DNA of 64,000 bases from Escherichia coli (GTDB taxonomy: Bacteria; Pseudomonadota; Gammaproteobacteria; Enterobacterales; Enterobacteriaceae). This document shows positions 8,977-14,350 of the stretch, piece after piece; positions within the stretch are counted from its first letter, which is position 1; the number at the start of each line of letters is the position of its first letter. The stretch lies in assembly GCF_051903065.1 (NCBI RefSeq), contig NZ_CP178438.1, one strand, 5' to 3'. The notes beneath the pieces were generated by a model. The model was not told the origin of the DNA. It did no database searches and worked only from the letters and a program-made list of their open reading frames with translations. Both the position numbers and the translations under genes were made by a program.

Positions 8977-9554
8977 TGGTTTATCCCCGCTGGCGCGGGG
9001 AACTCGTACTGACGGATAAAAATAATACCTTTTGCGGCGGTTTATCCCCGCTGGCGCGGGGAACTCGTCAACGTTTTTCATGTGGGCATGAGTTGGGGCG
9101 GTTTATCCCCGCTGGCGCGGGGAACTCTATTCGGCCTCGTGCTGGTCGTGACAAAATACCGGTTTATCCCCGCTAGCGCGGGGAACTCTGGCGATATTGC
9201 CTACCGCAACAAAGAAAATACGGTTTATCCCCGCTAGCGCGGGGAACTCATCCACGAATCCAGTGCAAATGAGTTTGTTGGCGGTTTATCCCCGCTAGCG
9301 CGGGGAACTCATTGTGACTACCACCGATAACCCCGCAACCACCGGTTTATCCCCGCTAGCGCGGGGAACTCCTGCATTCGCCTGCGGTTATCAGATCGCT
9401 AAACGGTTTATCCCCGCTAGCGCGGGGAACTCGCTGCCATTACTTCCCGCCAGCGTTGCTCTGGCGGTTTATCCCCGCTAGCGCGGGGAACTCGCAGAGA
9501 ATCGTTCGATTGCCCCTACATCTTCCGGTTTATCCCCGCTGGCGCGGGGAACTC
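8977..9554 (-). CRISPR. CRISPR array, type I-E (E. coli-type) repeats, 10 repeats / 9 spacers
   Basis: 29-bp repeat cggtttatccccgctggcgcggggaactc (reverse complement of GAGTTCCCCGCGCCAGCGGGGATAAACCG) with an exact 61-bp period; nine 32-bp spacers at 9006, 9067, 9128, 9189, 9250, 9311, 9372, 9433, 9494; the first repeat has t instead of c at its first base. Confidence 0.97.
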
Positions 9555-9760
9555 TCTAAACATAACCTATTATTAATTAATGATTTTTTAAGCCAGTCAC
9601 AATCTACCAACTTTACAGTATCACACAAACAACACATCCATTATGTTAAAGAGCGCTTAATCCATTGATTAAAAAGGTAAATATTTAAAATAACTCTATA
9701 CAAACTAAAATCTACCAAACTTTACCGCAATAATTTTCACTCCAACGAAAAATTAACGCC
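9555..9760 (-). promoter_or_regulatory. CRISPR leader (AT-rich, contains the array promoter and integration signals)
   Basis: The sequence abutting repeat 10 (reverse complement ...ATAATAGGTTATGTTTAGA) matches the conserved E. coli leader-repeat junction as I recall it; AT-rich tract; the far boundary is approximate. Confidence 0.7.
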
Positions 9761-10736: not shown

Positions 10737-11339
10737 ATGCTCAGAATATGCATCGTAATTATATTTATTTTCAATTTATCAGGCTGTGGATATAACGATA
10801 TTCAAACCTATGATGAGCAGGTTAACGCCTCCTGGTCTGAGGTATTAAATCAATATCAACGTCGCGCCGATCTTATTCCTAATCTTGTCGCCAGTATTAA
10901 AGGTTATTCCAACCATGAAAAAGACGTTTTGGAAGCCGTAACATTGGCTCGTAGCCAGGCTAATCGCGCCAGCAGCGATCTTCAGCAAGCTCCCGGAGAT
11001 GCACAAAAATTACAAGCCTGGCAACAGGCCCAGGCGCAGGTGACTCGCACTCTCGGTCAGTTAACGATAATTAGTGAGCGTTACCCTGAGTTAAAGGCTC
11101 AAGAGCTCTATCAAAACTTAATGGTACAGCTCGAAGGAAGTGAAAATAGAATTGCCGTTGCGCGAGGAAGATATATTAAAGCCATTGAACAATATAATGT
11201 CACTATCCGCAAATTCCCCGCTGTATTAACCGCAAAGGTCATGGATTACACACCAAAGAAAAATTATTTGCCGGATGATGTCACCGCAGTAAGTAAAGCC
11301 CCAACAATAGATTTTAGCCAGAATGCTAATGCTCATTAA
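10737..11339 (+). CDS. LemA-family lipoprotein
   Basis: 200 aa; N-terminal lipobox (LSGC); LemA-type core (...QRRADLIPNLVASIKGYSNHEKDVLEAVTLAR...); RBS aaaaggga upstream; AT-rich codon usage. Confidence 0.85.
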   Translation: MLRICIVIIFIFNLSGCGYNDIQTYDEQVNASWSEVLNQYQRRADLIPNLVASIKGYSNHEKDVLEAVTLARSQANRASSDLQQAPGDAQKLQAWQQAQAQVTRTLGQLTIISERYPELKAQELYQNLMVQLEGSENRIAVARGRYIKAIEQYNVTIRKFPAVLTAKVMDYTPKKNYLPDDVTAVSKAPTIDFSQNANAH

Positions 11340-11352
11340 GCGGGGAACTTCT

Positions 11353-12246
11353 ATGCGAAATTTTATCTTCCTTATGGCTTTCTTCTGTTCATCTGTGTTT
11401 GCCACACAAATTCCAGTACCTGAATCCCCCAAGTATGTGAATGACTTAACCGGCACATTAACAAACAGCGAAGTAAACACCCTGACCAACCAGATTAAAG
11501 CCCTGACGCAAAAAAACCACGCACAGTTGGTCGTGTTAGTGGTTGATACAACAGGCGATGAAACCATCGAGCAGTACGCAACGCGGGTATTCGATAGCTG
11601 GAAACCGGGTGATAAAGACCGCGATGATGGCGTTCTACTGTTAGTCGCCTGGCAGGATCATACCGTGCGTATTGAAATCGGTTACGGGCTGGAAGGTATT
11701 ATTACGGATGCACAGTCCGGGAAAATTATTCGCAACAGTATTATTCCTGCATTTAAAAAAGGCGACCTGGCTGGCGGTTTACAAAAGGGGATCAGCGATA
11801 TTGAAAGTCGTCTTACGGGGAATAATTTAGCAACGATAACACCGACCGATCACCCTTTGCCCTTTAGCGGTTGGTGGGCATTGTTAGTCTGGGCGATAGT
11901 ACTGACATTTATTTCTGCCAGAGGATATATCAAAACGCTGGGAGTAATTTGCTTCGCAGCTATTGTACTGGCCTTTGTTTTACCTATAGCAGGCTTCAGC
12001 GGAAGCTGGGGAGTACTCGCAACATTACTCTGCTTCGCCACACCGTTCCTGGCTGTCGCCATCGCTTTTACCCCCTTCGGCAAAAAAGTTCGGGATTTGA
12101 TGCGTGATGTCAACCAGCCATCACGCCATACAAGAAGCAATTCTTCCTCCCACTATTCATCATCGTCATCCTCTTCATTCAACAATGACAATTTCAGCGG
12201 TGGTGGCGGTTCATCTGGTGGCGGTGGCGCTTCCGGGCGCTGGTAA
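11353..12246 (+). CDS. TPM-domain (YgcG-like) membrane protein, paralog 1
   Basis: Signal peptide MRNFIFLMAFFCSSVFA, TPM/phosphatase-like domain (...VLVVDTTGDETIEQYATRVFDSWKPGDKDRDDGVLLLVAW...), C-terminal TM helices, Gly/Ser-rich tail ending SGRW. Confidence 0.85.
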   Translation: MRNFIFLMAFFCSSVFATQIPVPESPKYVNDLTGTLTNSEVNTLTNQIKALTQKNHAQLVVLVVDTTGDETIEQYATRVFDSWKPGDKDRDDGVLLLVAWQDHTVRIEIGYGLEGIITDAQSGKIIRNSIIPAFKKGDLAGGLQKGISDIESRLTGNNLATITPTDHPLPFSGWWALLVWAIVLTFISARGYIKTLGVICFAAIVLAFVLPIAGFSGSWGVLATLLCFATPFLAVAIAFTPFGKKVRDLMRDVNQPSRHTRSNSSSHYSSSSSSSFNNDNFSGGGGSSGGGGASGRW

Positions 12247-12260
12247 CAAAAGGAATTGAT

Positions 12261-13409
12261 ATGCGTATTTTTCTCTTACTTCTGATGCTATGCAGTTTTC
12301 AGGTATTCGCTGAACGATTGCCTTCAGTGAATGACTTAACCGGGACATTAACGACAGAAGAACAAAGTGTTTTAAATCAACAATTAAAGACTCTCGAGCA
12401 GCAAAACCACTTCCAGGTGGCCGTGTTAGTTACGCCAACCACAGGGGGCAAAAACATTAAACTTGCAGCCTCGCAGAGCTACGGGTTATATCACTGGAAA
12501 CCCATTGGAGAGAAGCGATACGGCGAAGGTATCTTAATTCTCGTCGTTTGGCCGGAAGGGCTGGCGTCAATGAAGATTGGACATGGACTGGAAGAGATGT
12601 TGCCGCCGGAACAAGCTGCGCAAATTGTTCGTTACCATATGCAGCCAGAATTCGAAAAAAACAATCTCTTTGCTGGATTAACGGGCGGAATTGAAAGCAT
12701 CGCACAGTTTACCCATATCAAAGCGAACCTTAGCCCTTTGGATGCTTTAGCCAATCATCTGTTTGCTAATCCGCAACGTTCGCTGCCATGTCTTGCCTGG
12801 ACACTGCTGATGATCGTTGCCATCGTTGTCCTCTGGCGATTTGCCAGCCGCCCACGGCGTGGCATATGGATGATATCGATGATTACCCCTATGGTCTGGT
12901 TTTTCTCCTTTCAGGACGATGTCATCATTCGGCGGGTATCGGTCGTTTGTTTTAGTTTATTGTTAGCAACAACCTGCAAGCAGCGTCTCGCGGTAGTTTT
13001 TAATATGTGCCGCGTATTTCCTATGATGCTGACCCCAAAAAATAAAAACTCTAAAGTGAAAAAACAAAAGAAGACTCCGCAGGTTCGTGAATCAGGACGA
13101 AATTCATTGTTTGTCGTGATGCTAATAATTATTGTGGGATGGTGCCTGGTGTTCGCCAGTAATAAAAATATTGCATTCATCTCAACAATTATTGGGTTAA
13201 TTGATCATTTTATCGGCCCAATAACCATTGCTGGCATCGTTCTGCTGATCATTGTGGCCAAATTTACTGGCAATCTTAAGCTGGGGTCAGGAGAAAAAAG
13301 CAACAGGAAAACGGGGAATCGTAATGCTCACTCTCGCTCTTCGTCGAGAAATTCTTTCCGCGGTGGTGGCGGTTCTTCAGGAGGCGGCGGTTCATCCGGC
13401 CGTTGGTGA
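12261..13409 (+). CDS. TPM-domain (YgcG-like) membrane protein, divergent paralog 2 with extended membrane region
   Basis: Signal peptide MRIFLLLLMLCSFQVFA, TPM domain, extra hydrophobic and Lys-rich segments, tail ...GGGGSSGGGGSSGRW. Confidence 0.8.
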   Translation: MRIFLLLLMLCSFQVFAERLPSVNDLTGTLTTEEQSVLNQQLKTLEQQNHFQVAVLVTPTTGGKNIKLAASQSYGLYHWKPIGEKRYGEGILILVVWPEGLASMKIGHGLEEMLPPEQAAQIVRYHMQPEFEKNNLFAGLTGGIESIAQFTHIKANLSPLDALANHLFANPQRSLPCLAWTLLMIVAIVVLWRFASRPRRGIWMISMITPMVWFFSFQDDVIIRRVSVVCFSLLLATTCKQRLAVVFNMCRVFPMMLTPKNKNSKVKKQKKTPQVRESGRNSLFVVMLIIIVGWCLVFASNKNIAFISTIIGLIDHFIGPITIAGIVLLIIVAKFTGNLKLGSGEKSNRKTGNRNAHSRSSSRNSFRGGGGSSGGGGSSGRW

Positions 13410-13414
13410 TCGTA

Positions 13415-14308
13415 ATGCGCTTAATCTTTATTCTATTCACTTTGTGGTGCCTTCCTGGGCTTGCCCAGCAAATTGCTGTGCCGGAACTGCGCCAACAGGT
13501 GACCGATATTACTGGTACGTTAAGCACTTCTGAACAACAATCACTGACACAGCAACTGCAGGATATTACACATAAAACACGGGCGCAGGTCGCTGTATTA
13601 GTAGTGCCGTCCACCGGAGACGATTCCATTGAACAATATGCAACACGCGTTTTTGATAGCTGGAAACTGGGAGATAAGCAGAGAAACGATGGTATTTTAC
13701 TTCTGGTTGCCTGGGAGGATCATGCTGTTCGTATTGAGGTTGGCTACGGGCTGGAAGGGATGGTTACCGACCTGCAAGCGGCGAAAATTATCAGGGATAT
13801 ATTGATCCCTGCCTTCAAAAGTGATGACCTGATGGGTGGATTAACACTGGCAAGCGAAAATATCGGCGCGCTTCTGTTGAATGGTGAATTATCGGAAGAC
13901 AAGGGGGATTATTACAGTATCAATCCCCCTATTCCATTATCGCTTGCTGTAATTATATTGCTGGCGGTACTTTCATATTTTATTGTTTTTACCGATCCGT
14001 CGAATTTACCCTGGATCACTCTCACTGGCGCCATTTACGGGATGGTATTCCTCTATGTTGCCGAGCCAGGACCATGGACCAATTTAATCGTTGCCTGCGG
14101 TATGTTAACACCTTTTGCGATCGTGACGCTGGTTATTTTTTGGCTTATCGTTAATAAAAAGCTACGCGCCAAATACAAAAAACTCAGTAAAGAAAGAGCT
14201 TCAAGAAAAGGTTCTTCTTCATCCTCTTCCGGTGGAGGCTCAAGTGGCGGCGGATTTAGCGGCGGGGGCGGTTCTTCTGGCGGTGGCGGCGCGTCCGGTC
14301 GCTGGTAA
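13415..14308 (+). CDS. TPM-domain (YgcG-like) membrane protein, paralog 3 (likely the counterpart of K-12 ygcG)
   Basis: Signal peptide, TPM domain closely similar to paralog 1 (...SIEQYATRVFDSWKLGDKQRNDGILLLVAWEDHAVRIEVGYGLEG...), tail ...GGGGSSGGGGASGRW; start could also be 13403, overlapping the upstream stop. Confidence 0.85.
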   Translation: MRLIFILFTLWCLPGLAQQIAVPELRQQVTDITGTLSTSEQQSLTQQLQDITHKTRAQVAVLVVPSTGDDSIEQYATRVFDSWKLGDKQRNDGILLLVAWEDHAVRIEVGYGLEGMVTDLQAAKIIRDILIPAFKSDDLMGGLTLASENIGALLLNGELSEDKGDYYSINPPIPLSLAVIILLAVLSYFIVFTDPSNLPWITLTGAIYGMVFLYVAEPGPWTNLIVACGMLTPFAIVTLVIFWLIVNKKLRAKYKKLSKERASRKGSSSSSSGGGSSGGGFSGGGGSSGGGGASGRW

Positions 14309-14321
14309 CTCAACCATAAAA

Positions 14322-14350
14322 AACGCCAGCCCGGAGGCTGGCATTTTTAA
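14322..14350. terminator. Bidirectional intrinsic terminator between the TPM cluster and eno
   Basis: Hairpin gccagcc-cggag-ggctggc flanked by an A-run upstream and a T-run downstream, between convergent genes. Confidence 0.6.

Follow-up and report, generated by a model that had tools for sequence, protein, structure and literature searches.

Three consecutive genes in a 64-kb stretch of Escherichia coli DNA (contig NZ_CP178438.1; the whole stretch is called the window below, and coordinates are positions within it) encode membrane proteins that carry a TPM domain and end in almost the same glycine- and serine-rich peptide. The question raised by this locus is what the shared C-terminal tail does. 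The genes, designated TPM1, TPM2 and TPM3, are part of an operon (region 10737-14342 on the plus strand, as are all features given here unless noted) with the order lemA-TPM1-TPM2-TPM3, flanked by queE and eno, both on the minus strand. The tail is an ancient hallmark of the YgcG-type TPM membrane proteins. Structure prediction and residue covariation point to a tail that acts as a leashed C-terminal docking strand for the TPM domain; this reading is held with fair, though not high, confidence.

All three proteins end in F[S/R]GGGGSSGGGG[A/S]SGRW followed directly by a stop codon. The last 17 residues of TPM1 (11353-12246) and TPM3 (13406-14308) are FSGGGGSSGGGGASGRW, encoded at 12193-12243 (stop 12244-12246) and 14255-14305 (stop 14306-14308), respectively, and those of TPM2 (12261-13409) are FRGGGGSSGGGGSSGRW, encoded at 13356-13406. 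The motif is preceded by the basic and serine-rich linker SRHTRSNSSSHYSSSSSSSFNNDN in TPM1 (12124-12192) and by the basic linker KFTGNLKLGSGEKSNRKTGNRNAHSRSSSRNS in TPM2 (13260-13355), both read from the sequence, and in TPM3 by a Gly/Ser linker that is predicted to be disordered (14186-14254). These are the tails and linkers that an earlier note on this DNA had described. In themselves, the genes belong to a known family and are unremarkable within it. The PF04536 profile (TPM_phosphatase hidden Markov model, gathering cutoff 22.1 bits) matched TPM1 with 140.7 bits (E 3e-41), the divergent paralog TPM2 with 76.6 bits (E 2e-21) and TPM3 with 130.2 bits (E 6e-38), while the NCBIfam models gave only weak, sub-threshold matches, to MamQ and Psb32 (Psb32 E 1e-8, far under the cutoff). 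TPM1 consists of a signal peptide, the TPM domain, three hydrophobic helices, the linker and the tail. By inspection, the signal peptides of the TPM proteins are of the AxA type and the membrane region of TPM2 is larger, with about five helices. The TPM domains of TPM2 and TPM3 are 39% identical.

A peptide repeated in tandem paralogs could reflect gene conversion. When the last 51 nucleotides of the genes were compared, however, the paralog pairs were identical at only 39-42 of 51 positions and their longest common exact runs were 8-16 nucleotides. The pairs have 15-17 identical residues (0-2 differ), yet 7-9 codons per pair differ synonymously. Identical codons make up 5-7 of the 16-17 conserved tail residues, a share no higher than that seen when the TPM domains of these pairs are compared. 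The synonymous differences and the lack of a long identical tract exclude recent gene conversion. The tail DNA of TPM3 and of ygcG of strain K-12 is closer (48 of 51 nucleotides, with a 26-nucleotide exact run). This similarity is allelic and not between paralogs, because both genes occupy the same place by eno with a shared 3' flank and because strain WP2-W18-ESBL-08 is a mosaic in which lemA-TPM1-TPM2 is followed by a K-12-type ygcG at the TPM3 position. The membrane regions of TPM3 and YgcG are less than 25% identical although the tail DNA is so similar, which places the haplotype boundary inside or just before the tail-coding region. The last 17 residues of YgcG are identical to the tail described here, and the tail was intact in every intact copy that was translated. 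The synonymous divergence, the identical tail on YgcG and in other strains, and a near-invariance across phyla bear out the earlier claim that selection acts on the peptide. A 17-residue peptide that occurs three times in one operon and recurs throughout the family is far beyond chance.

The extent of this conservation was evaluated in an unbiased search, in which a profile of four E. coli TPM domains, with the tail excluded, was compared with 1.84 billion cluster representatives. The profile matched 26,184 proteins at E <= 1e-3. The tail was present on 113 of the best 150 representatives, and 92 fit the pattern GGG[AS]SGxW$; most of the remaining entries among the best 150 were visible fragments or had frameshifted Gly-rich ends. 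An earlier word-indexed search with the TPM domain gave mostly truncated or frameshifted fragments of less than 260 residues and was not used for C-termini. The conserved unit is [F]xGGGGx[S/F]GGGGASGxW-COOH, and a logo of 110 tails, running from -17 to -1, reads F S G G G G [S/G/R] [S/F] G G G G A S G x W. The terminal Trp and the Gly residues at -6 and -7 were found in 110 of 110 tails, Ser at -4 in 108 and Ala at -5 in 95. Position -2 is variable (R 43, S 40, G 9 and D 8 of 110). The earlier note had taken the tetrapeptide SGRW as the unit; conservation of the C-terminus was upheld, but the unit comprises about 17 residues and SGRW is not that unit, since its Arg is the variable position and the least conserved of the four. 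In a full-length alignment of 105 sequences, the only invariant columns were D34, G89, A102 and P135 of the domain and G293, G294, G295, S297 and W300 of the tail. The linker is 36% Gly and 16% Ser across the family, with a median length of 31 residues. Reports found on bacterial TPM proteins mention the C-terminal region in passing, with nothing on the function of the tail, and sequence searches of the PDB with the tail and with a phage protein that carries it gave no match.

AlphaFold2 was employed to predict the structure of TPM3 from the 105-row alignment. The mean predicted local distance difference test score (pLDDT) of the model was 81.5, with about 97 for the TPM domain. The domain consists of strands 32-34, 61-67, 96-102 and 107-112 together with four helices, in agreement with the TPM fold, a central four-stranded sheet flanked by four helices (10.1101/2024.10.28.620569). 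Foldseek matched the model to 5ANP, 7TBR, 2KW7 and 3PTJ, with a best E value of 1e-10 and a target-normalised TM-score of 0.89. Membrane helices were predicted at residues 178-196, 198-218 and 223-261, followed by a disordered linker at 261-281 with a pLDDT below 50. The last ten residues, however, had a mean pLDDT of 94, and DSSP assigned a β-strand to residues 294-299. The strand of residues 107-112 (β4, AVRIEV, encoded at 13724-13741) is as long as the tail strand, and antiparallel pairing of the two would set R299, at tail position -2, beside A107.

Covariation between the tail and the domain was analyzed in 277 non-identical tail-bearing proteins aligned to the domain profile, in which column p corresponds to TPM3 residue p+20. 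The top pair without a gap-dominated column, scored by mutual information with average product correction (z = 9.8), was tail position -10 and column 63, which is Phe83 of TPM3 (codon 13652-13654) at the end of helix α2 ('RVFDSW'). The two positions exchange an aromatic residue, and 263 of 267 proteins fit: when column 63 is aromatic, tail -10 is Ser (115/118), and when column 63 is small (A, V or G), tail -10 is Phe (148/149). A second pair exchanges a positive charge (z = 5.0). When column 87, the first β4 residue (Ala107 in TPM3), is K or R, tail -2 is non-basic in 161 of 165 proteins; when it is T, A, S or E, tail -2 is mostly R or K. The Arg at tail -2 is, then, a compensating residue that occurs when the first β4 residue is non-basic. 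Additionally, tail -17 is coupled (z about 3.5) to columns 93-95, the GYG loop after β4. The aromatic and the charge pair, the two main ones, are mutually independent, with all four combinations present (92, 62, 40 and 36). On a neighbour-joining tree built without the covarying columns, column 63 changed 32 times, tail -10 changed 27 times and the joint state 32 times. Since the joint state needs no extra changes, the two positions appear to have switched together repeatedly, in about 27-32 co-switches, although the tree is rough and the counts of independent switches are approximate. Neither the covariation nor a docking strand was described in the literature found.

These results suggest a mechanism in which a disordered Gly/Ser leash, often basic, ends in the near-invariant peptide and the last 6-10 or so residues of the tail add a β-strand to the TPM domain, where it would most probably run antiparallel to β4 (RIEVGYGLEG) at the edge of the sheet. 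Tail -2 would lie beside the first β4 residue and tail -10 would pack on the end of helix α2. The acceptor would be the protein's own TPM domain or, in E. coli, equally that of a sister paralog, and the strand may serve as a latch or in assembly. TPM1, TPM2, TPM3 and YgcG are all in the same coupling states, with an aromatic residue at 83 and Ser at -10, and a non-basic residue at 107 and Arg at -2; the E. coli tails should therefore be interchangeable among TPM domains, and it would be for this reason that the tail has been retained even in the divergent paralog. Docking is thus the best fit of the three roles that the earlier note had considered, but AlphaFold2 and covariation point to the TPM domain of the same or a sister protein as the target, and not to an external machine.

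Docking of C-terminal peptides is known from PDZ domains, from the donor strands of chaperone-usher pili and from the tethered tips of SSB and FtsZ. The tail resembles the first two in that a leashed extreme C-terminal peptide is predicted to add an edge strand beside a helix, and resembles the SSB and FtsZ tips in its disordered linker and invariant terminal peptide. In contrast to all of these, to which it has no kinship in sequence or fold, peptide and acceptor are here in one polypeptide with transmembrane (TM) helices between them.

This last feature speaks against docking. All members have a signal peptide of the cleavable type, so that the TPM domain is expected to be exported. One hydrophobic segment was found between the domain and the tail in 65 proteins, three in 137 and two in 49, although the count was made with a crude hydropathy window and the parity of the two-helix class is unreliable. 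A cluster of Lys and Arg follows the last TM segment, and in single-pass proteins the net charge is +2.15 after this segment and +0.38 before it. By standard rules, the signal peptide, the odd numbers of TM segments and the basic cluster place the domain in the periplasm and the tail in the cytoplasm. The coupling is nevertheless perfect in 53 strict single-pass proteins (29 small/Phe, 23 aromatic/Ser, no violations), so that, by conventional rules, docking in cis looks physically impossible in the mature, membrane-embedded protein. Three readings remain: contact is made before or without export, the tail crosses to the outside by an unconventional route, or tail and domain are coupled only indirectly.

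Other observations, besides the approximate switch counts, also speak against a docking strand. Some linkers have merely 5-12 residues. The pairing of the tail strand with β4 was inferred and not seen. TPM domains produced in recombinant form without the tail still fold and yield crystals (5ANP and 7TBR), so that the tail is unnecessary for folding. Furthermore, the motif is found on other proteins. Open reading frames (ORFs) encoding GGGG-A-[S/T]-G-x-W-stop were collected in a DNA pattern scan. In cellular metagenomes, 109 of about 118 of them encoded TPM proteins, a result in favour of the docking strand, whereas in viral contigs TPM proteins accounted for only 13 of 54 and about 40 were other proteins, indicating that the motif can work without a TPM domain in cis. 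The other cellular carriers were small proteins with a TM segment, a basic stretch and the tail, two of them beside TPM genes, and one secreted peptidoglycan-binding protein. The viral carriers included tail-tube-like proteins (Pfam Phage_T4_gp19; PHROG 'tail tube'), one structural protein of the virion, and small zinc-ribbon and TM proteins. The non-TPM carriers also have the upstream half of the motif, [F/W/Y]xGGGG[D/S][F/S], which was outside the search pattern; they bear the same module and do not match by chance.

The viral carriers comprise proteins of 423, 275, 373 and 949 residues (loci L117, L120, L116 and L088 1024-3870, respectively) and about 35 small ORFs in loci L085-L138, most of which have no family match. 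The two small proteins directly beside tail-bearing TPM genes have 107 residues (L186, 7779 region) and 122 residues (L155); the former matched Pfam PF25184, 'YxzE-like putative bacteriocin', with 30 bits, under the 40-bit cutoff, and the PF25184 proteins may themselves consist of a TM segment and a Gly-rich tail. The peptidoglycan-binding protein (L235, 543 residues) has a signal peptide, a PG_binding_1 domain and a weak lectin-like match, ends in FEGGQSGGGGASGSW and was the sole clearly exported non-membrane carrier seen.

A bolder form of the docking idea, in which the extracytoplasmic domain of a very widespread family of type I membrane proteins is split and its closing β-strand is the extreme C-terminus, beyond an odd number of TM segments and a Gly/Ser leash, is tentative and rather doubtful. 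If it were true, phage virion proteins of the tail-tube-like type and small proteins could plug into host TPM domains by mimicry.

The possibility was considered that the tail is a cytoplasmic docking tag that recruits a separate partner, in the manner of SSB or FtsZ, with a tail-less TPM protein or stress-response factors as candidates. Topology rules place the tail on the appropriate side of the membrane for this, and the motif is also present on soluble and phage proteins. Genomic context was examined in 80 proteobacterial lemA loci and 108 metagenomic loci chosen only by the tail DNA pattern. The usual proteobacterial order is lemA, one tail-bearing TPM gene and a tail-less TPM gene. The third gene encodes a TPM protein of about 165 residues that lacks a signal peptide and a tail and ends in NELPDxPV[VI]L; it was present in 56 of 61 proteobacterial loci. 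In other phyla, the tail-less TPM protein has a two-TM hairpin inserted in the domain (about 210 residues). A tail-less TPM gene was found in 71 of 108 metagenomic loci and stands directly 3' of the tail-bearing gene in at least 52 of 98, and lemA is directly upstream of the tail-bearing gene in 55 of 63 proteobacterial and 71 of 100 metagenomic loci. The tail-less family, with C-termini of the form NELP[D/N]xPV[VI]L, was seen beside tail-bearing genes at L009 8414-8923 and in about 130 other loci (for example L071 7297-7794 and L174 3968-4615). A membrane-anchored recruiter of this kind has a precedent in YdjH of Bacillus subtilis, encoded in the pspA-ydjGHI operon, which tethers YdjI and PspA, two cytoplasmic proteins, to the membrane and interacts with them in two-hybrid analysis (PMC8581546).

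The tail-less TPM protein did not behave as a receptor for the tail. When the partner from a canonical operon was joined to the cognate tail by a 30-residue GGGGS linker and modelled with AlphaFold2 on 51 operon-paired rows, the tail remained undocked, with a pLDDT of 39-44; a TPM sheet as such is evidently not enough for AlphaFold2 to dock the tail. The partner's own C-terminus instead formed a short strand at residues 164-166 (pLDDT 83-91), so that in both types of TPM protein the extreme C-terminus is predicted to add an extra strand. The C-terminus of the partner, NELPDxPV[VI]L, would thus have on its own domain the role that the tail has in TPM3, although the partner differs in lacking a signal peptide, in being soluble or having only a two-TM hairpin, and in having its strand directly after the domain. 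Moreover, 108 operon pairs showed coupling of the tail with the domain of the same protein (z = 5.1 and 3.3) but none with the tail-less protein next to it (maximum z = 2.0). There is no tail-less TPM gene in the 64-kb window, and the tail is perfect in K-12, which lacks both lemA and such a partner. With three tail-bearing paralogs and no tail-less TPM gene in 64 kb, the E. coli locus is atypical. No recurrent neighbour other than lemA and the second TPM gene was seen in about 170 loci. YdjH is also an imperfect model, having a PspA/SPFH context and not LemA, and primers imply that it ends in ...SRGSF and not in GGGGASGxW. A context like that of ydjH was sought around tail-bearing genes without lemA and rejected, as no such neighbours were present, and PspA or Band-7 genes were absent near the tail-bearing genes examined. 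Likewise, the idea that DUF2207 proteins beside lemA carry the tail was not borne out in the 80 proteobacterial lemA loci or the pattern scans. Taken together, recruitment of a separate cytoplasmic partner is unlikely.

The tail might instead be a low-complexity module that associates with itself, its Gly blocks and spaced aromatic residues (F...F/S...W) acting as stickers and spacers or forming polyglycine II, with no specific pocket; it would gather the proteins into clusters or bring the three paralogs together. Such a module would account for the extra GGGGF blocks found upstream of the motif in many relatives, for the transfer of the motif to unrelated proteins, including oligomeric phage proteins of the tail-tube-like type, and for a tail common to all three paralogs. 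However, the conservation is position-specific and tied to the free C-terminus (Ala -5, Ser -4, Gly -3 and Trp -1), beyond what composition would demand, and in TPM1 the Gly blocks number just two, the minimum. Generic cohesion would also not be expected to give swap-type covariation with two particular residues of the folded domain. Self-association is consequently regarded as improbable.

Even less probable are the other two roles named in the earlier note, a sorting signal and a protease-recognition tag, in which the peptide would be recognised by a sorting enzyme, by a secretion system or by a protease of the tail-specific or AAA+ type. The extreme C-terminal site and the aromatic last residue would suit such a tag, and a long unstructured cytoplasmic tail could in principle offer a start site for FtsH. 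However, the order of the elements (TM segment, basic cluster, Gly-rich stretch, W-COOH) is the reverse of that in the tripartite LPXTG, PEP-CTERM and GlyGly-CTERM signals, with nothing hydrophobic after the motif. No sortase-like, exosortase-like or rhombosortase gene recurred near the 170 loci, where a single rhomboid match was obtained among 66 neighbouring ORFs of loci without lemA. Neither the sorting role nor the protease tag found support. Nor do the tails, which end in ...ASGRW or ...SSGRW, resemble the ...LAA ends of the ssrA type or the ClpX C-motif. They are not RTX nonapeptides (GGxGxDxUx), as the two GGGG blocks are split by SS and lack the register of Asp and hydrophobic residues. 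The tail is Trp-terminal but is not an outer-membrane protein β-signal or a DegS-activating YxF end, since it follows a K/R cluster in proteins with an α-helical membrane region and an α/β domain. Recognition by a sorting enzyme or protease would also leave the covariation with the domain unexplained.

Finally, that the tails are functionless low-complexity sequence homogenised by gene conversion or slippage among tandem paralogs is scarcely credible: GGN/TCN-rich DNA is prone to slippage, linker lengths differ among strains and the TPM3 and ygcG tails have a long exact run in common, but that likeness is allelic, the paralog tails have diverged synonymously and the peptide is near-invariant across phyla in a search made without it.

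The docking strand was also compared with what is known of other TPM proteins. BA41 of Bizionia argentinensis (5ANP) and the other solved domains (7TBR, 2KW7 and 4OA3) have the TPM fold and include the best structural matches of the TPM3 model, but the structures comprise the isolated domain only and the C-terminal region was treated as low complexity. Cerutti et al. reportedly described BA41 in the Journal of Structural Biology in 2017 as a single-pass protein whose TPM domain is extracytoplasmic and which has a 'C-terminal cytoplasmic low complexity region', an arrangement like the one predicted here. Psb32/TLP18.3, which acts in the assembly and repair of photosystem II, has a TPM domain in the lumen, the equivalent of the periplasm, and a C-terminal TM helix, but lacks the tail. 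The idea that its TPM domain holds the C-terminus of D2 was rejected, as a preprint shows that CP47 stabilises that C-terminus.

The remaining features of the operon are in keeping with its assignment. The first gene, lemA (10737-11339), encodes a LemA-family lipoprotein (PF04011, E 1e-48) with the lipobox LSGC in the stretch 10737-10800. The lipobox residues G16 and C17 were invariant in 16 proteobacterial LemA proteins, and a lipobox pattern was present in 126 of 181 LemA proteins of related loci; the rest include lipobox-like variants that also have a Cys (LTNCGYN and LCGCGYN) and forms with an N-in signal anchor. Because LemA is either a lipoprotein or has an N-in signal anchor, its domain is extracytoplasmic. 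This placement is contrary to the Pfam comment, which reportedly puts the small N-terminus of LemA outside the cell. An alternative ATG for TPM1 is found at 11323. The TGG-TGA end of TPM2 overlaps the GTG start of TPM3 (GTGA), which is the PGAP start of the third gene, and this overlap at 13404-13409 suggests translational coupling. The operon ends in a terminator-like hairpin and T-run (14325-14342), which lies in the gap shared with the convergent eno.

The DNA is 100% identical to that of E. coli 23CRST027 (NZ_AP045789), in which PGAP calls TPM1 a pseudogene ('incomplete; missing C-terminus') that ends at window position 12024 (L003 2254-2925). The TPM1 ORF is nevertheless intact through the tail to the stop at 12246. 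A TPM1-like gene of strain RM10466 received the same call; the low-complexity end has probably led the annotation astray. In strain N56, TPM1 is annotated as frameshifted at an A-run with one A fewer (L259 960-1852). An A7 run is present early in TPM1, at 11510-11516, and the change in N56 may reflect either a site prone to slippage or an error in sequencing. The length of the Ser run in the TPM1 linker differs among strains. A clustered regularly interspaced short palindromic repeat (CRISPR) array is annotated just upstream of queE in NZ_AP045789, at about 9100-9555 of the window, and K-12 also has one at this place.

The gap between queE and eno is polymorphic in E. coli. The four-gene form was found in 1102 of 5426 complete genomes, K-12-like genomes have yqcG and ygcG in the gap, and in a third haplotype lemA and a TPM1-like gene are accompanied by an unrelated membrane ORF of 120 residues. 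The K-12 protein YgcG, which has no assigned function, is built like the TPM proteins of the window, with a signal peptide, a TPM domain, hydrophobic helices and a low-complexity C-terminus, and its gene stands by eno at the position of TPM3; K-12, however, has this one gene and the small yqcG, annotated as encoding a cell envelope stress response protein, in place of lemA and three tail-bearing paralogs. Among the loci examined, only those of Escherichia held more than one tail-bearing paralog in an array. In the TPM2 ortholog of E. albertii NBRC 107761, TGG is changed to TAG (CGT TAG TGA), so that the protein ends in ...ASGR and the terminal Trp is lost.

Bacteria, plants and invertebrates all have TPM-domain proteins, with no consensus on what the fold does (10.1101/2024.10.28.620569). 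No description was found in the literature of the motif on phage virion proteins, or of the coupling of a supposedly cytoplasmic tail to an exported domain. A region dismissed as low complexity has at its end a peptide that ranks among the most conserved parts of the protein and coevolves, by residue swaps, with two positions of the domain. The conflict with textbook topology rules is informative whichever way it is resolved. On the split-domain reading, if the coupling reflects contact in the mature protein, either the accepted topology would be wrong and an uncharged Gly/Ser tail would pass the membrane in an unconventional way, or the tail would be a pre-export latch that acts as a checkpoint in export or assembly. 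That phage virion proteins carry the motif is a hint of a contact between phage and host that is yet to be explored. For the family as a whole, a leashed strand that closes or links TPM domains would be the first concrete, testable structural hypothesis.

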